Shown piece after piece: positions 4,704-16,151 of a DNA stretch of 32,000 nucleotides (positions are counted from its first letter, which is position 1; each line of letters begins with the position of its first letter). This DNA is from Candidatus Harpocratesius repetitus (GTDB lineage: Archaea > Asgardarchaeota > Lokiarchaeia > Sigyniarchaeales > Promethearchaeaceae), in assembly GCA_021498095.1 (NCBI GenBank), contig JAIZWK010000001.1:1800001-1832000 (forward strand). The letters are read 5' to 3'. The position numbers and the translations under genes were made by a program. The notes beneath the pieces are model-generated. The model was given only the letters and a program-made list of their open reading frames with translations. It searched no databases and had not been told where the DNA came from.

Positions 4704-4892
4704 AATTTTATTTCGTTTTTCTTCTTCACAAAAAATCGAATACAGAAAGAATTTTATTTGCCAAGCAAAAGTTGAATGCTAAACAGTTACATGTCATCAT
4801 TCTAAAATTCCAAAGCGGAAGAAATTTAACATCACAACAACAAATAATCATATTGAAATTACTGTAACAGTTAAAAATTATTGGGAAAAAAA

Positions 4893-5426
4893 ATGACGGG
4901 AAACTATCTGTTTAAACTGATCATCGCAGGTAGCGGTGGAAGCGGAAAAACTACATTATTACGGCGATATACTACTGGGCTCTTCAGCGGTTCTACAAAA
5001 ATGACAATTGGTGTTGACTTTTCAGTTACTCAATGCAAAACATCTAAAGATCAGAATGTGACCTTGCAAATATGGGATTTTGGCGGTGAAAACAGGTTTA
5101 GATCGCTTCTTCCAAGTTTTTGTTTAGGTGCTAGTGGATGTTTAATGTTGTTTGACCCGTTACGTCCCGCTACATTTCACGAATTAGAGGAATGGGTAGA
5201 TATCGTGCAATCGAATACCAAAAACATCCCTATTCTCCTTCTCTCTTCAAAACATGATTTGATAGATGAAGGTCATCCATTCTCAGTTGCTAATTCTGAT
5301 ATTGAAGCATTTGTTGAAAAGCACAAATTGGCAGGATACATTCATGTATCGTCGAAAACTGGCCTTAATGTTGCTCAATCATTTACAAAAATCTCAGAAT
5401 TAATGATTGAAAAAAATGCGGGGTGA
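4893..5426 (+). CDS. Rab/Ras-like small GTPase (Asgard type)
   Basis: YLFKLIIAGSGGSGKTT (G1), TIGVDF (G2), LQIWDFGGENRFRSL (G3), SSKHD (G4 variant), VSSKTG (G5). No C-terminal Cys prenylation motif. ATG at 4893. Confidence 0.9.
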   Translation: MTGNYLFKLIIAGSGGSGKTTLLRRYTTGLFSGSTKMTIGVDFSVTQCKTSKDQNVTLQIWDFGGENRFRSLLPSFCLGASGCLMLFDPLRPATFHELEEWVDIVQSNTKNIPILLLSSKHDLIDEGHPFSVANSDIEAFVEKHKLAGYIHVSSKTGLNVAQSFTKISELMIEKNAG

Positions 5427-9578: not shown

Positions 9579-9671
9579 TTATTTTAGAAAATTATTACAT
9601 ATGAACTGATTTTTTATTTCTATTTTTCTTTCTCATTTTTTCTTATTATCTTTTATTTCATTTCGCTTTGA

Positions 9672-11078
9672 ATTCCTTCGAAGGTGTTAGTGTATCCAGC
9701 AGATATAATTCGAGAAGTTGAACATGCTAAAAAAATAGGAATTAATTATTCTGCTCCAATAATTGACTGGGAAACAATATCTGCCCGAATGTGGAGTCAA
9801 ATTGATGAATCTAATGAGATTGAAGCAAGCTTGCTTCATGCTCCAAATTTAACCCTTTATAAGGGTGTGGCAGAGTTTACAGGAAAGTACGAAATGCGTG
9901 TGAGATTGAACGCTCCATCGAGTTCAATATTAAAAAAAAAGCAGAGATCTACTCATGTTTTTAAGGGAAAACGCTTTGTCCTTGCTTCTGGTGGAAGATC
10001 TTTTATTCCGCCTATTCCTGGATTATCGGATGTGGATTTCATTACATCTGAAACTTTTTTTGGTTCAAAATTTCCTAAGAAACCTTGGAAATCACTTATT
10101 ATAATTGGTGGTGGTGTAATTGCGGCGGAATTTGCTCATATTTTCTCTGCATTTGGAACTAATGTTAAGATCGTTGAGATGCTTCCTCGACTTGTTCCTA
10201 CAGAAGAACCTGAAATTAGTGAGATCCTCGAAAAAGAATTTCGTAAACATCTAGATGTGTATCTTCATGCTAAAGCGGTTAAATTTGAAGAAAAAAATGG
10301 AATAAAGGTAGTAACCATCGAAAATTTGGATAATCATGAAATCTCAGAGCTCAAAGCTGAGGCATTGATGATTGCAACAGGTCGTCGTTCAAATGCAGAT
10401 ATATTGAAAGTAGAAAATGCAGGTATTAAAACTGATTCTCAAAATTGGATTCGTACAAATGAATTTCTTGAAACTAATGTTCCAAATATTTGGGCAATTG
10501 GAGATGCTAATGGAAAATTCCAATTTCGACACAAAGCTAATCATGATGCGGAAGTTCTTGCACGTAATATATTTGGAAATCGTGAGAAAGTTCCAGTTGA
10601 TTACAGTGCTGTGCCTTGGGCGATTTTTGCATATCCTCAAATAGCTCATGTAGGTTTAACTGAACAAGAAGCAATTGCTCAAGGTTATAAAATTTACACT
10701 GCTGTAAAAACCTATTCCAGTATTGCAAAGGGTTTTGCTATGGGCTTAGATCATTCAGAGGCTCTGTTTAAATTGGTGGTAAATGAAGATTATCGTATTT
10801 TAGGTGCTCATGCAATTGGTCCTCATGCAACAACAATAATACAACAGATGGTATATTTGATGAATGCTGGTTTTACCTGTCCCCATGAAGGAGAGTTGGA
10901 ATTGGATATGTCATTAGCTGACTTAAAAATGACAAATGCTTGTCCAGAAGCAGGATCGTTCATGCCGATTTACCGCTCTATGGTGATTCATCCAAGTTTA
11001 AATGAAGTAGCAGGTTGGGCAATTGGAAATCTACGCCCCGTTAATATCGGTAAAAATCATTCACATCATTCACATTAG
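9672..11078 (+). pseudogene. Dihydrolipoamide dehydrogenase / flavoprotein disulfide reductase family gene lacking its 5' end
   Basis: Homology starts at IPSKVLVYPAD (9672), directly after an in-frame TGA (9669-9671). It keeps LASGGR, GGGVIAAE, ATGRR, WAIGD and HPSLNE, but has no N-terminal GxGxxG and no CxxxxC. The upstream DNA is T-rich and non-homologous. Confidence 0.7.
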
Positions 11079-11140: not shown

Positions 11141-11950
11141 TTATAGAACAAAAGGGATGATCGCTTTTCTATCACTCGGATATTCTGAAAAGTGTTCGTG
11201 ATACCATCGATGATGAGAAATTGCTCGTGGAATTAAGTTGGCAGCAGTCCAAAGCGCAAAAACAGCTCCAGACACCGTCCAAGTCAAAATTGCCCAGCCT
11301 ATCCATTCTAATATTTCCCCAAAATAGTTAGGGCATGAAATCCAACGAAAAATGCCACCGTATGGAATTTTATAACCAGTTTCTCCCGGTTCCCGCAAAT
11401 TTCTGAGAATATGATCAGAATGAAGATTAATAATAAAACCACAAAACCAAATTGTAGTTCCAATAATGAAAAAAGGAGTTAAAAGCCATGATTCGGGGTA
11501 GATCGGCTTAATATGGAATAGATAGCGCGCCTGAATATATGAATTCAATCCATTAAACACCATTCCCATCAGCACGATAGTTATTGGCATTTCTTTTTTT
11601 CCCCGAATAAGGAAAGGGTAAATAAAGGCTCGTTGAATGTAATGAATCTCCCAAATCAACAAAAAAGCTATTGCCACTATTTGCGTTTTTTGCTCACTAA
11701 TGATGTAAAAAATAAAGAATAGAATGGGAGATACGGCTTCCATAATAATCCATCCTAATTTATTATCAATCTGAGGACCCCACTTTTTACTGATGTATCT
11801 GCCGTATCCAGCAGTTACAAAAAATAGGCTGATAAAAACGATTATTCCCAAACCAATCATGGTATATTTTAATATTTCATGGAAAAGTGATTCGCTAAAT
11901 CCTAAAAATGCTAAGATACGATTCATAGAAGAATCCAAATAGTGCAACAT
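11141..11950 (-). CDS. Steroid 5-alpha-reductase (3-oxo-5-alpha-steroid 4-dehydrogenase), SRD5A1/2-DET2 type membrane protein
   Basis: AGYGRY, GWIIMEAVS, HYIQRAFIYP, INLHSDHILRNLR, GYKIPYGG, SCPNYFGEILEWIGWA, PRAISHHRWY, YPSDRKAIIPF. Multiple hydrophobic segments. Confidence 0.93.
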   Translation of the reverse strand: MLHYLDSSMNRILAFLGFSESLFHEILKYTMIGLGIIVFISLFFVTAGYGRYISKKWGPQIDNKLGWIIMEAVSPILFFIFYIISEQKTQIVAIAFLLIWEIHYIQRAFIYPFLIRGKKEMPITIVLMGMVFNGLNSYIQARYLFHIKPIYPESWLLTPFFIIGTTIWFCGFIINLHSDHILRNLREPGETGYKIPYGGIFRWISCPNYFGEILEWIGWAILTWTVSGAVFALWTAANLIPRAISHHRWYHEHFSEYPSDRKAIIPFVL

Positions 11951-11994
11951 TAATTAATGGAAGCATTCTTCTTTTAAATTAATAATAGGAAGGA

Positions 11995-12037
11995 AATCTT
12001 CATTTCTACATATAATTATGTAGAATTTTATAAGATT
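11995..12037. promoter_or_regulatory. Inverted repeat (candidate operator) in a divergent promoter region
   Basis: TTCTACATA-taat-TATGTAGAA (12004-12025) has perfect 9-bp arms. Outer arms are AATCTT (11995-12000) and AAGATT (12032-12037). A TATA-like TTTTATAA (12026-12033) abuts the right inner arm. Confidence 0.5.
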
Positions 12038-12096
12038 GCTTTTCTTTCGATTTTTTTTCTTATAAACTCGATAGAATTGGAAGGTATCTTACATTT

Positions 12097-13182
12097 ATGG
12101 CAATTTTTGTTACAGGTGCTACTGGATTAGTTGGTGGGCATGTAGTTAATTATTTACTTCAACAGACTGACATTTTGGTTAATTCTGCTGATGAAATAAT
12201 ATGTTTAGTTAGAAATCCTTCAAAAGCAACGGAATTAAAGCAACTCGGTGTTAAAATGATTCACGGGGATTTATCTAATATCCCTATTTTGAATAAGATT
12301 TTTAATGATTACTCTATTAAGTATGTATTTCACATCGCTGCATGTGTTTCTGTTTATGCTTCATTTGAAGAGATGTTTCAAACCAACGTTATAGGAACGA
12401 AGAATCTCTTGGAAGCGTTTAGTCGTTCTTCAGCGCGCTCATTTATCCACACTTCAAGTATTATTGTTTATGATCATCATCATCTTCGAAAACGAAATAC
12501 TATTGTAAAATTTACTGAATCATCACCTATTGGTCCAAAACAAAGGGGTAAAGATATTCCTTATGCTGTTAGTAAACGAATAGGAGAAGATCTTGTGGTA
12601 GAATTCGCGAAGAGGTATCCAGATAAATCTTTTCTCATTACGAGATTAGGACCAATAATAGGAAAAGGCGATCGCCAAATGATACCGTCTCTTGTAAAAG
12701 CTTTTGCTTTACCCTTGCCAAAGCTTATCAATAAAGGTTTAGGGCAAATCTCCCTTACTGCTCCTTTGGATGTGGCGCGCGCTCAAGTTTTTTTGGTTAA
12801 AAATGGAAATAGCTATTCTGGTCAAGCATTTAATATTGCAAAAGAACGTTGGAATTTTCGTCAACTATTTAATGTAGTTGCTGAATATTACAATCGACCA
12901 CCACCCAAAATAAGTATCCCTCTATGGTTATTTCGCTTATTTAAACCTTTTCTTCATTTGATCAAGATAATTTGGTCAAAATCTGAATTTATTCAAACAT
13001 TGCTTTCAAGTTCTGCCTTGGAATATATGGAATACTCTTATGAATATGATGCACAAAAATTGAAAAATCTCGGTTTCCAATTCACTACTGATATTAAAAA
13101 TTGCATTTTAAAGGGATTGCAGGCTTATGATCCAGAAAAATTGATGGTCAGCAAAAGAATTAAGCGAAAAGAGATTAATTAA
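12097..13182 (+). CDS. Extended SDR, NAD(P)-dependent epimerase/dehydratase (3-beta-HSD / DFR-like)
   Basis: FVTGATGLVG, CLVRNP, VFHIAA, TNVIGTKNLL, HTSS, catalytic YAVSK, and a hydrophobic C-terminal region. Confidence 0.85.
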   Translation: MAIFVTGATGLVGGHVVNYLLQQTDILVNSADEIICLVRNPSKATELKQLGVKMIHGDLSNIPILNKIFNDYSIKYVFHIAACVSVYASFEEMFQTNVIGTKNLLEAFSRSSARSFIHTSSIIVYDHHHLRKRNTIVKFTESSPIGPKQRGKDIPYAVSKRIGEDLVVEFAKRYPDKSFLITRLGPIIGKGDRQMIPSLVKAFALPLPKLINKGLGQISLTAPLDVARAQVFLVKNGNSYSGQAFNIAKERWNFRQLFNVVAEYYNRPPPKISIPLWLFRLFKPFLHLIKIIWSKSEFIQTLLSSSALEYMEYSYEYDAQKLKNLGFQFTTDIKNCILKGLQAYDPEKLMVSKRIKRKEIN

Positions 13183-13256: not shown

Positions 13257-14327
13257 CTATTCTTCAACCTTTTCTATCCAACCAAATATATCGGGCTTTG
13301 AACCATATTGTATTCCTGTTAATTCTTCATATAATTTGGTAGCAATCGGACCAACTTCAAAATTATTAATTATATAATTTTCCTCTTTGTAAAAGATAGA
13401 TCCAACAGGGGCAATGATTGCCGCAGTCCCCAAACCAAAGGCTTCTGTTAAAGTCCCATTCTCTATACATTCAATAACCTCATCAATTGAAATACGGCGC
13501 TCTACCGCTTTAATTCCGATATGATCGCATATTTCTAAAATGCTTTTTCGAGTTATTCCAGATAAAATGGACCCATGAAGCGGTGGGGTTACAACTTCTC
13601 CATTAATTACAAAAGCCATATTCATAGCTCCAACTTCTTCAATATATTTCCGCTCACAAGCATCTAACCAAAGTGTTTGAGAAAAACCCTTTTCCATAGC
13701 TTCATCGGTGGATTTTAATGAAGCTGCATAATTTCCAGCCGTTTTCGCTTCTCCTGTTCCTCCCACTGCGGCGCGTACATACTTGTCTTCAACTAGTATT
13801 TTTACTGGTTTAAAACCTTCTTTGAAATAGGGTCCTGAAGGACTTAAGATAATAAATAAAATGTAACGATTTGCTTTATGCAATCCCAAAAATGGTTCAG
13901 AAGCGATCATACATGGGCGAATATATAAAGAAGTGCCAAGAGTCTTTGGAACCCACCGCGCTTCCAATTTTAATAATTCTTTTAGTGCAGCTAGCAAATA
14001 GTCTATATCTACTTCTGGCATGCACATGCGTCGTGCTGATCTATTTAAGCGCTTAAAATTCTCCCTCGGTCGAAATAAGCGCAAACCTTCACTTGTTCGG
14101 TAGCATTTTAGGCCCTCCCAAACTATTTGACCATAATGAAGACAAGCTGATGCTGGTTCTAATCCGAGAATACCATATGGTCGAATTTCTGCTGGACCCC
14201 AACCACCTTTGGCTCGATCAAATTCCATATATAACATATGATCTGTAAAAATTTGCCCAAAACCCAATTTAGAATCGTCTTCTGGAAGTTCTTTTAATTC
14301 AGTCGCTTTTTTAATTTTTATTTCCAT
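13257..14327 (-). CDS. ilvE: Branched-chain amino acid aminotransferase, copy A
   Basis: FGQIFTDHM, LHYGQIVWEG, LFRP, LYIRP, PLP-lysine AKTAGNY, EEVGAMN, ILSGITR, GTAA. ATG at 14327. Confidence 0.92.
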   Translation of the reverse strand: MEIKIKKATELKELPEDDSKLGFGQIFTDHMLYMEFDRAKGGWGPAEIRPYGILGLEPASACLHYGQIVWEGLKCYRTSEGLRLFRPRENFKRLNRSARRMCMPEVDIDYLLAALKELLKLEARWVPKTLGTSLYIRPCMIASEPFLGLHKANRYILFIILSPSGPYFKEGFKPVKILVEDKYVRAAVGGTGEAKTAGNYAASLKSTDEAMEKGFSQTLWLDACERKYIEEVGAMNMAFVINGEVVTPPLHGSILSGITRKSILEICDHIGIKAVERRISIDEVIECIENGTLTEAFGLGTAAIIAPVGSIFYKEENYIINNFEVGPIATKLYEELTGIQYGSKPDIFGWIEKVEE

Positions 14328-14383
14328 GATTCTCACGCTTGATGTAATATAAAAAAACAGCAATTTGAAGATATTTTTTGTAA

Positions 14384-15463
14384 TTAATTAACAGGTTCAA
14401 TCCATCCAAATAAATCTTCTTTTTCTCCAATTTGGATGCCTGTAATTTCATCGAATAGTAAACGGCTGTATTCTCCCACTTCAAAATTATTTATTAAATA
14501 TTCAGTGTCTTTATAGAAAATTGCGCCTACAGGAGCGATTACTGCCGCAGTACCCATTCCAAATGCTTCTTTTAAGGTACCTGACTTCACAGCATCAATT
14601 ATTTCTTCAACACTGATTCTTCGCTCAGTAATAGGAATTCCTCGCTTTTTGCAGAATTCAATTACACTACGACGAGTAATTCCAGGCAAGATAGTACCAT
14701 CCAATTCGGGTGTTATTATTTCATCATTGATACGAAAAGCAATATTCATTGCACCGACTTCTCCGATATATTTGCGTTCAATTGCATCTAACCACAAGAC
14801 TTGAGAATATCCTTTTTTGGCAGCTTCTTGCGCTGCTTTCAAAGATGCGGCATAATTTCCACCAGTTTTCGAAAAACCAACACCACCAGGTGCAGCTCGG
14901 ATGTATTTATCTTCAACCATGATCTTTACAGGTTTAAAACCATCCTTGAAATAAGATCCAACTGGAGATAAAATTATAAAGAAAAGATATTCTTTAGCGG
15001 CGTGCACACCTAAAAATGGCTCTGAGGCGATCATAGTTGGGCGGATGTATAAGGCAGTTCCTTTTTGAGAAGGAATCCAACGTTCTTCTATTTTTAAAAG
15101 TTCTTTTAATGCAGCTAAAACATAATCAATATCAACTTGTGGCATGCACATCCTTTCGGCTGAAGTATTCAAACGCTCAAAATTTAATCGAGGGCGGAAT
15201 AATTGAATTTTTCCAGTTGATGTTTTATACGCTTTCATTCCTTCAAAAATTTCTTGGGCATAGTGCAATACAGATGCAGCTGGACTAATAGTAATATCAC
15301 CATATGGAATAATTTCTGCAGGACTCCATCCATTTGGTTCAGAATATCGCATTATCATCATATGATCGGTGAAATTTTGCCCAAATGCTAATTTGGAATA
15401 ATCTTGTGGCACAGTTTTTAGTTGACTCTGCTCCACGTGAGTAATTTTAATATCTAAATTCAT
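14384..15463 (-). CDS. ilvE: Branched-chain amino acid aminotransferase, copy B
   Basis: FGQNFTDHM, LHYAQEIFEGMKAY, LYIRP, SKTGGNY, EVGAMN, ILPGITR, GTAA. ATG at 15463 (alternative 15478). Confidence 0.93.
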   Translation of the reverse strand: MNLDIKITHVEQSQLKTVPQDYSKLAFGQNFTDHMMIMRYSEPNGWSPAEIIPYGDITISPAASVLHYAQEIFEGMKAYKTSTGKIQLFRPRLNFERLNTSAERMCMPQVDIDYVLAALKELLKIEERWIPSQKGTALYIRPTMIASEPFLGVHAAKEYLFFIILSPVGSYFKDGFKPVKIMVEDKYIRAAPGGVGFSKTGGNYAASLKAAQEAAKKGYSQVLWLDAIERKYIGEVGAMNIAFRINDEIITPELDGTILPGITRRSVIEFCKKRGIPITERRISVEEIIDAVKSGTLKEAFGMGTAAVIAPVGAIFYKDTEYLINNFEVGEYSRLLFDEITGIQIGEKEDLFGWIEPVN

Positions 15464-15701
15464 GATGATCATCTTCAAAATAACGATAAAAAGGGTAATT
15501 TGAATTCAGATATTTCAGAATATAAATGTTTTGAGAATGCAAAGTGTTGAAAGTAGGGAAGCTCATTTTGAAAAAAAAAGATGAATAAAAATCAATAATA
15601 ATATCGAAAATAAATTCAGTGGATGATTTAGAAAATCGATAAATCCATTAGTTCTAATTGGATTCAGTAAAAAATTGTCATATAATGAAAAATTTACATT
15701 T

Positions 15702-16151
15702 TTAAGAAATTAAGAATCTTTGAATACGATCTTTAGGTAAAAGGCGTTCATCATGCAAGATCTCATTTAGAGTATTTTGAAATGCGTGATATTGTTGCAA
15801 TTCGAATAAATTAAGATATTGAGAATCAGGGAATTGAGAACGAAATTGTTCAGCAATTTGATGAAGTAAATTTTGCGTAATTTTTCTGTCGGATTTTGGA
15901 TCTGCAATACAATAGATGAGAAGTGAATGTTTGTTCGTTGAATAAATGCTATATACATATATTCTGAAGTTTTTCATGGAAATAAATTCAATTTCATCTT
16001 GTAAAACAAAAGTTCCCATTTGATATATTTGATTTATTAATTGAGATCGGCGTTCTGGCGTTATATGTCTGTGATTTTTGTGAATAAGGTGATATACTTG
16101 ATGGTAAATAAGTAATCCATTTTTAACAAAACCAATCTCTAGTACTGTCAT
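15702..16151 (-). CDS. Longin/roadblock-like domain protein (Asgard type), putative
   Basis: 149 aa. By eye the pattern is two N-terminal strands (VLEIGFVKNGLLIY), a helix, three strands (IEFISMKNFRIYVY...LLIYCIAD) and two helices ending in F..TL.EIL.D. This fits a longin-like fold; no profile search was run. Confidence 0.55.
   Translation of the reverse strand: MTVLEIGFVKNGLLIYHQVYHLIHKNHRHITPERRSQLINQIYQMGTFVLQDEIEFISMKNFRIYVYSIYSTNKHSLLIYCIADPKSDRKITQNLLHQIAEQFRSQFPDSQYLNLFELQQYHAFQNTLNEILHDERLLPKDRIQRFLIS

Follow-up and report, generated by a model that had tools for sequence, protein, structure and literature searches.

The window analyzed here, a 32,000-nucleotide stretch of the genome of the Asgard archaeon Candidatus Harpocratesius repetitus (contig JAIZWK010000001.1, positions 1,800,001 to 1,832,000), carries two divergently transcribed genes, one for a membrane reductase of the steroid 5-alpha-reductase (SRD5A) family and one for an extended short-chain dehydrogenase/reductase (SDR), referred to below as SDR1. 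We propose that the pair probably works as a coupled system in which the SDR and the NADPH-dependent reductase saturate a carbon-carbon double bond of a membrane lipid in a carbonyl-assisted reaction. The evidence that carries this proposal is the identity of the two genes, the intact catalytic residues of both products, and a linkage between SDRs and SRD5A-type reductases that recurs far beyond this locus. A preliminary description of this DNA had named the enzyme classes correctly, and the module it pointed to is real; it is of a kind already known, a 5-alpha-reductase with a hydroxysteroid dehydrogenase (HSD)-type SDR. No paper on the genes that surround SRD5A in Asgard genomes came up in a literature search.

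Enzymes encoded by the pair

The reductase matches the Pfam family Steroid_dh (PF02544) over the complete profile (positions 1 to 150 of 150; E = 7.6e-56; 188.7 bits against a cut-off of 22.6) and aligns end to end with the solved seven-transmembrane structure of the bacterial enzyme PbSRD5A (7c83; E = 4e-77 over 240 residues, 29 to 268). Human SRD5A2 (7bw1) is matched at E = 2.6e-43 and 152 bits, and the enoyl-CoA reductase TECR art-1 at E = 1.4e-14 and 57 bits. These matches bear out the earlier assignment to the SRD5A1/2-like enzymes, and every motif on which that assignment had drawn (IMEA, HYIQR, NxHSD, NYFGEILEW, and RAxxHHRWY) could be confirmed and mapped (Table 1). A single-sequence AlphaFold2 (AF2) model of the reductase was poor, with a mean predicted local distance difference test score (pLDDT) of 54.6. 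The alignment of relatives begins at about residue 8 to 30 of the predicted protein, and the true start may be Met9.

Table 1. Positions of the divergent gene pair, its shared upstream region, and the motifs of its products, in window coordinates
Feature	Position	Strand	Details and basis
Reductase open reading frame (ORF): SRD5A-family (Steroid_dh) NADPH-dependent membrane enone/enal reductase	11141-11950	-	269 aa, intact; Pfam, PDB sequence matches
NADPH-site motifs	11201-11428	-	N175, D179, R186, N208, E212, R242, H246, Y250
RAISHHRWY, residues 242-250	11201-11227	-	NADPH-site motif
NYFGEILEW, residues 208-216	11303-11329	-	NADPH-site motif
NLHSD, residues 175-179	11414-11428	-	NADPH-site motif
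Substrate-carbonyl site	11630-11746	-	M70-E71 and H103-Y104-x-x-R107, from the alignment with 7c83 and 7bw1
HYIQR, residues 103-107	11630-11644	-	Y104 and R107 equivalent to human SRD5A2 Y91 and R94
IMEA, residues 69-72	11735-11746	-	M70-E71 equivalent to human SRD5A2 Q56/E57
Divergent intergenic region	11951-12096		146 bp, A+T-rich, presumed to hold both promoters
Perfect 18-bp palindrome, CTACATATAATTATGTAG	12006-12023		Candidate shared operator; arms CTACATA and TATGTAG, center TAAT
SDR1 ORF: 3-beta-HSD/ERG26/YbjS/OleD-like extended SDR	12097-13182	+	361 aa, intact; Pfam, AF2 fold comparison
Rossmann motif TGATGLVG (residues 6-13) and L37-V38-R39-N40 after beta-2	12112-12216	+	Alignment of 57 sequences
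Catalytic S120, Y156, K160 (YAVSK, residues 156-160)	12454-12576	+	Invariant in the alignment

In human SRD5A2, Glu57 and Tyr91 activate the 3-oxo group of the substrate, and the NADPH-binding residues are known from the same work (Han et al. 2021, PMC7815742). Their counterparts in the window reductase are intact: Glu71, His103, Tyr104, and Arg107 are invariant across 61 homologues, and all eight NADPH-site residues are kept (human Asn160, Asp164, Arg171, Asn193, Glu197, Arg227, His231, and Tyr235). The catalytic match to the human enzyme that had been claimed therefore stands for Glu57, Tyr91, and Arg94, but the "QEY" triad described by Han et al. (2021) is incomplete, with Met70 in place of Gln56. 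Methionine occupies this position in 211 of 256 close homologues, in all nine gut Bacteroidota sequences, and in all 24 Asgard sequences examined, so Gln56 is not a family-wide requirement. Since the gut Bacteroidota clade shares the methionine, Met70 is compatible with steroid reduction.

A tree of 100 reductase sequences is divided by a split with a support value of 95. On one side stand all Asgard clades and, with them, the gut Bacteroidota bile acid clade, a single sequence from Binatia, and two from Spirochaetales; on the other stand 63 sequences, all bacterial except for two from Thermoplasmatota archaea. Within their own side, the Asgard reductases are not cleanly monophyletic.

Pfam and NCBIfam comparisons leave the class of SDR1 undecided by sequence alone. 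The strongest Pfam match is Epimerase (E = 7.6e-33, 114 bits), and 3Beta_HSD (PF01073) also scores above its cut-off (E = 7.2e-18; 65 bits against 22). In NCBIfam, HpnA, thioester reductase, OleD, and SdmB rank before GalE as the best matches, and each of them falls far below its family's cut-off (HpnA, 91.8 against 367.65; OleD, 74.6 against 580; SdmB, 58 against 600; GalE, 63.3 against 262.3). GalE leads the matches to sequences in the PDB, and GalE and RmlB are the top Foldseek matches.

Comparison of folds separates the two branches. An AF2 model of SDR1 built on an alignment (pLDDT 94.7) has template modeling (TM) scores of 0.80 to 0.81 to the Swiss-Prot models of Escherichia coli YbjS, Schizosaccharomyces pombe Erg26, and a Klebsiella 3-beta-HSD and of 0.75 to 0.77 to OleD, SdmB, and plant 3-beta-HSD/decarboxylases; an aurachin ketoreductase is also among the matches. 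Scores to sugar-nucleotide enzymes of the GalE and RmlB type are 0.66 to 0.72, with larger root mean square deviations. The modeled fold thus supports placing SDR1, by a moderate margin, in the 3-beta-HSD/ERG26/OleD-like branch rather than the sugar-nucleotide branch; solved structures are dominated by GalE-type entries. The earlier view of the SDR as 3-beta-HSD-like is upheld at the level of fold, and grouping with sugar-nucleotide epimerases, named in advance as an outcome that would count against it, was not found at that level.

With the branch that holds 3-beta-HSD/ERG26/NSDHL, SdmB, OleD, HpnA, and YbjS, SDR1 has in common the GxxGxxG motif, the Ser-Tyr-Lys catalytic set, the 3Beta_HSD match, and TM scores of 0.75 to 0.81. 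It differs in its low identity to these enzymes (about 20 to 23%), in missing their equivalog cut-offs widely, and in forming a clade of its own that is almost entirely Asgard labeled. This family is compact, with about 62 proteins of at least 37% identity, followed by a sharp drop to 29%. An SDR1 homologue is also named for Candidatus Lokiarchaeum ossiferum; cultures of Lokiarchaeia exist. The YxxSK and LVRN motifs reported for SDR1 are both present. Gly7, Gly10, Gly13, and Arg39 are invariant in 57 sequences, as is Asn97 alongside the catalytic residues, and there is no acidic residue at the Arg39 site after beta-2. With its Rossmann and catalytic residues invariant, the enzyme should be active, and Arg39, together with what is generally known of SDRs, suggests that it probably uses NADP(H).

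Two further results concern the proteins jointly. Among longer forms of the reductase, none was an SDR-reductase fusion; they carry a PCMD domain or are artefacts of eukaryotic gene models. A complex prediction for the reductase and SDR1 returned a score of 0.00, which gives no verdict and was counted neither for nor against an interaction. As a separate observation, five metagenomic proteins of 572 to 590 aa (P0252 and P0399 to P0402) consist of the reductase fused to a C-terminal PCMD domain (PF13201).

Linkage of the two genes in archaea and bacteria

The genes lie head to head at the spacing first reported. The palindrome between them occurs once in the window and in none of 100 shuffles, and in the host genome, a single contig of 4.36 Mb, it has only one other site (G000:C1:446345-446362), which lies upstream of an M28 peptidase gene and is uninformative on regulon or function. 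In the matching intergenic regions of three relatives (G002, G011, and G012), the TATGTAG/CTACAT half-sites form the best-conserved block, whereas the flanks vary. Divergent transcription from one short region with a conserved palindrome suggests that the two genes are probably co-regulated, with the palindrome as a candidate operator.

Conservation of the pair was followed in the genomes of 40 relatives and in metagenomic contigs, and presence across the phylum was scored in 400 Asgard genomes (E = 1e-30 or better for the reductase, 1e-40 or better for SDR1). For both proteins, the closest named homologues are 91% identical and come from "Candidatus Harpocratesius sp."; further relatives carry the label Promethearchaeota. 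The divergent pair is found in 11 Lokiarchaeial loci, comprising the host genome (G000), another of the same genus (G002), three of a second genus (G011, G012, and G013), and six metagenomic contigs (L019, L021, L112, L113, L115, and L031). In one of these contigs, an IS605-type OrfB/TnpB (Cas12f-like) gene lies between reductase and SDR (L019:4458-5777), and the locus is otherwise syntenic with the window. Another, L031 (QNBI01000289.1, 3.8 kb), is labeled Spirochaetes bacterium B123_G9; both of its proteins nest inside Lokiarchaeial clades, which points either to mis-binning of an Asgard contig or to a recent transfer.

Across the phylum, the reductase was found in 110 of the 400 genomes, concentrated in six families (f1, f3, f5, f6, f13, and f18), and was not found at this threshold in the remaining Asgard families. 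SDR1 was found in 23, from f1 and f18 only, and in f18 the two genes are on different contigs. With SDR1 this restricted, and its adjacency to the reductase confined to part of one family, the specific pair is not a general Asgard feature; the expected conservation across Asgard genomes was borne out in the Lokiarchaeial loci and not in the wider phylum. The reductase is present twice in some Asgard genomes: in G055 (G055:C1:787722-807677) and G056 the copies are separated by about 19 kb, and in G008 (G008:C130) they lie in tandem.

Other SDRs take the place of SDR1 elsewhere. Another extended SDR, SDR2 (331 aa), is the immediate neighbor of the reductase in family f3 (genera g15, g16, g21, and g22) and in G004; it matches 3Beta_HSD (5.9e-23) and Epimerase (3.2e-23) about equally well and is 31% identical to SDR1 in the Rossmann half alone. 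By coordinates, SDR2 and the reductase are adjacent in at least 24 Asgard genomes, and in g15 a DUF1295 membrane paralogue often lies between them. The cluster in G034 (L030:5081-7765) and at least 23 other Asgard genomes is tight, consisting of SDR2, often the DUF1295 protein (300 aa; PF06966, E = 5.5e-57), and the reductase.

A scan of 185,579 species genomes gave 586 relatives of the reductase, of which the best 80 prokaryotic loci were examined and the reductase ORF was scored in 79. These best loci come from many bacterial phyla and Thermoplasmatota in soil, sediment, marine, and gut settings, with reductases 43 to 61% identical to that of the window. An extended SDR adjoins the reductase in 27 of the 79: SDR1 in one (L031), SDR2 in three (two Micromonosporaceae and L032, an archaeal contig of f3 type), and a third type, SDR3, in 23. 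SDR3 nearly always lies immediately upstream in the same orientation, and a 4-bp overlap is frequent. In a tree of the SDRs, the three types form separate clades, each with a support value of 100; the SDR2 clade takes in Micromonosporaceae and Anaeromyxobacter, and each of the 23 SDR3 members sampled, which represent at least 10 phyla, adjoins a reductase. In gut Bacteroidales, an Oxidored_FMN gene starts within 4 to 17 bp after that of the reductase, and a classical SDR of the adh_short family comes next, the layout of the isoallolithocholic acid cluster discussed below. Clustering of neighbor families in the 80 loci gave no recurrent partner beyond the SDRs and this Oxidored_FMN gene.

Four SDR lineages beside one reductase family are difficult to account for unless a dehydrogenase that forms or consumes a carbonyl is the reductase's normal partner, and the reductase and SDR1 are very probably linked in function. 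The functional two-gene module suggested for the window is thus sustained by a linkage that recurs in Lokiarchaeia and in many phyla, but it is neither Asgard-wide nor Asgard-specific. SRD5A-type reductases with their four SDR lineages appear as a widespread two-gene lipid module that has been characterized in gut Bacteroidota only. That the adjacency is meaningless and SDR1 is a sugar-nucleotide epimerase or dehydratase of glycan synthesis is very improbable. The Epimerase, GalE, and RmlB matches would suit such an enzyme, the pair is split in some relatives (see below), and its neighbors are unrelated housekeeping genes. Against this stand the closer fold match to Erg26, 3-beta-HSD, and YbjS, the three extended-SDR clades and one classical SDR found beside SRD5A-type reductases (every sampled SDR3 among them), the persistence of the pair around an inserted TnpB gene, and the conserved palindrome in the shared promoter region.

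Proposed reaction and candidate substrates

From these observations we infer an order of reactions, a cofactor, co-regulation, and a type of substrate. In the scheme we propose, the two genes would be expressed together from their shared 146-bp region, and SDR1, as an NADP(H)-type enzyme, would oxidize a hydroxyl group to a carbonyl, creating or exposing an alpha,beta-unsaturated ketone or aldehyde. The reductase, presumably with seven helices, would polarize this carbonyl through Glu71 and Tyr104, NADPH would deliver hydride to the beta-carbon, and Glu71 would protonate the alpha-carbon. SDR1 may afterwards reduce the saturated carbonyl back to an alcohol.

As substrate we tentatively rank first an external 3-oxo-delta-4 steroid, converted in a reaction of the sterol- or steroid-to-5-alpha-stanol type, because the characterized close relatives act on such steroids and because the genome gave no cyclase match. 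The 3-beta-HSD-like look of the SDR and the intact catalytic residues also speak for a steroid. No match to squalene/oxidosqualene cyclase (SQHop_cyclase) was found above cut-off in the host genome, so home-made steroids or hopanoids are unlikely substrates and any steroid used would be of external origin; the hopanoid-like substrates offered in the preliminary description lose ground accordingly. Microbial hydrogenation of sterols to stanols occurs in anoxic sediments. Should a steroid prove to be the substrate, the module becomes a candidate for carrying out this hydrogenation, and Asgard archaea would be handling lipids made by eukaryotes.

Two characterized systems provide the analogy. PbSRD5A has the same catalytic Glu and Tyr, the same NADPH residues, and the same length, and its NADPH-dependent reduction of progesterone has been shown in vitro (Han et al. 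2021, PMC7815742); it differs in having the Gln of the QEY triad where the window reductase has Met. In gut Bacteroidota, according to the account of Sato et al. (2021) in PMC12345280, a cluster of 5-alpha-reductase, 5-beta-reductase, and 3-beta-HSD enzymes makes isoallolithocholic acid. The cluster resembles the window pair in its reductase family, its side of the well-supported split, the Met at the Gln56 position, and the clustering of an SDR for the 3-oxo group. There, the SDR is about 260 aa long and of the classical adh_short type, an Oxidored_FMN 5-beta-reductase lies between the two genes, and all of them form one same-strand operon, whereas the window has an extended SDR of 361 aa, divergent genes rather than an operon, and no flavin reductase.

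Several observations weigh against the coupled system or against a steroid as its substrate. The pair is unlinked in G010, G006, G004, and family f18; in G010, the SDR lies in the same neighborhood as in the window, from adenylate kinase to the branched-chain aminotransferases, but the reductase is 2.26 Mb away. Most Asgard genomes with the reductase lack SDR1, so this SDR is not needed everywhere, and SDR1 itself stays below every NCBIfam equivalog cut-off. Asgard archaea are not known as users of steroids. Haloacid dehalogenase (HAD)-type phosphatases fused or adjacent to SDR1 in some lineages would fit a phosphorylated isoprenoid better than a steroid. The pocket of crystalline PbSRD5A holds a linear lipid, monoolein (PMC7815742). 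Finally, PbSRD5A and the Bacteroidota enzymes have not been reported on polyprenal, and their description as acting on steroids may reflect a choice of assays.

The HAD genes follow several patterns. L020, L022, L113, and L114, f18-type loci among them, have a HAD_2 hydrolase gene immediately downstream of SDR1. In P0132 (557 aa; L021:1643-3316), a HAD domain is fused to SDR1, and in L113 (3001-4766) a separate orthologue, 74% identical to that domain, lies 17 bp downstream of SDR1. Contigs L014 to L018 have HAD genes within a few genes of the reductase, and the HADs of different lineages are not mutually orthologous. For the host genome, a HAD link was considered and rejected: G000 contains nothing that matches the P0132-type domain, its only counterparts of the f3-type HAD are paralogues of 32% identity far from the pair, and no HAD gene lies near the pair.

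A phosphorylated isoprenoid brings in the saturation of polyprenol to dolichol, or of another allylic isoprenoid alcohol, which we regard as possible, if rather unlikely, for this pair. The SDR would oxidize polyprenol to polyprenal, the reductase would convert this to dolichal with NADPH, and the SDR would reduce dolichal to dolichol, with a HAD phosphatase first freeing the alcohol in some lineages. In eukaryotes, polyprenol is converted to dolichol in three steps by the SDR DHRSX and by SRD5A3: an unsaturated carbonyl is made, saturated with NADPH, and re-reduced (PMC13586052). The logic is that proposed here, an SDR, then an SRD5A-family reductase, then an SDR again; DHRSX, however, is a classical SDR, and two-gene modules of this kind are also found in bacteria not known to make dolichol. 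Archaea use alpha-saturated dolichol, and their alpha-reductase is still missing (PMC5088576). The HAD_2 genes beside or fused to SDR1, the HADs near the reductase in L014 to L018, and the linear lipid in the PbSRD5A pocket would suit this route, as would the position of the Asgard reductases as sister to the eukaryotic family.

That position is published: the SRD5A1/SRD5A3/TECRL family is of Asgard descent, with duplications predating the last common ancestor of eukaryotes, and Asgard sequences fall outside each of the three eukaryotic clades, sister to the family as a whole (Kay et al. 2025). In our data, three eukaryotic SRD5A1-like sequences (from a chytrid, a tunicate, and a foraminifer) have long branches, and a free quick tree places them among other bacteria, whereas a tree constraining them to the Asgard-bearing side is better by 16.5 log-likelihood units (approximately unbiased test, p-AU = 0.73) and so is not rejected. 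Given these long branches and the difference between free and constrained trees, our data do not place the eukaryotic sequences, yet they are compatible with Kay et al. (2025). The preliminary description had expected the pair to bear on the origin of eukaryotic sterol and dolichol chemistry. That expectation is weakened, as a module so widespread in bacteria says little by itself on this origin and the rooting of the eukaryotic SRD5A family in Asgard archaea has been published before.

Other findings argue against the dolichol route. Reductases 43 to 61% identical to that of the window, with adjacent SDRs of their own, are widespread in bacteria, which are not known to make dolichol. A glycan carrier is needed by all archaea, yet fewer than a third of the Asgard genomes, and none from whole families, gave the reductase. 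The HADs are non-orthologous between lineages and absent from the vicinity of the pair in the host, and the reductase is far closer to SRD5A2 than to TECR in a comparison limited to these two. Doubtful, and the most speculative of the proposals made here, is a complete prokaryotic polyprenol-to-dolichol pathway of HAD phosphatase, SDR1, and reductase in Lokiarchaeia and a Heimdall-labeled family, which would supply the archaeal alpha-reductase in these lineages and preserve the state before SRD5A1, SRD5A3, and TECR arose by duplication. Were polyprenal the substrate, the long-missing alpha-saturation step of archaeal dolichol would be identified and the eukaryotic SRD5A3/DHRSX route would be tied to an Asgard precursor.

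The pair might instead saturate the enone, enal, or enoyl group of some other lipid, with steroids and polyprenals as side activities, a conceivable reading to which we give a minor share of the probability. Examples would be phytenal derived from phytol, a quinone or carotenoid intermediate, or a long-chain lipid of the 2-enoyl or 3-oxo type, treated in the manner of OleD. The family-level matches of SDR1 to OleD (a 2-alkyl-3-oxoalkanoate reductase), thioester reductase, and HpnA, with aurachin ketoreductase by fold, point this way, as do the span of the SRD5A superfamily over enones, enals, and enoyl-CoA, the DUF1295 membrane paralogue between reductase and SDR2 in g15, and the spread of the reductase over soil, sediment, marine, and gut settings, which suggests a common lipid. 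No particular compound has positive evidence in its favor, however, and the closest characterized enzymes act on steroids, which is why an external steroid stays first in our ranking.

Surroundings of the pair in the window

The remaining genes of the window are of the housekeeping kind, among them IMPDH, aminotransferases, aconitase-type subunits, adenylate kinase, Phe-tRNA synthetase, and RNase PH. Among the window ORFs, Pfam searches gave no isoprenoid, glycosylation, HAD, flavin reductase (Oxidored_FMN), or classical SDR (adh_short) gene.

Two other genes are of types typical of Asgard "eukaryotic signature" genes: a Ras/Roc-family small GTPase at 4881-5426 (E = 3.4e-32) and, at 15702-16151, a 149-aa protein with a weak match to the longin domain that falls below cut-off (E = 0.0012). 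Together with the closest named homologues of the pair, they support an Asgard (Lokiarchaeial) origin of the window. Beyond the 3' end of the reductase gene, the region 9579-11078 holds a pyridine-nucleotide disulfide oxidoreductase ORF (9684-11078) whose Pfam Pyr_redox_2 match starts at profile position 65. Upstream and in frame, a TGA stands at the position of the second redox Cys of a C-IPSK motif, preceded by a Phe/Ile-rich tract with no FAD-binding motif; the ORF may be a truncated gene or a remnant. Directly downstream of SDR1 lie two tandem class IV (branched-chain) aminotransferase paralogues (13257-15478), and such a pair is also found 3' of the SDR in L019, L028, and L112.

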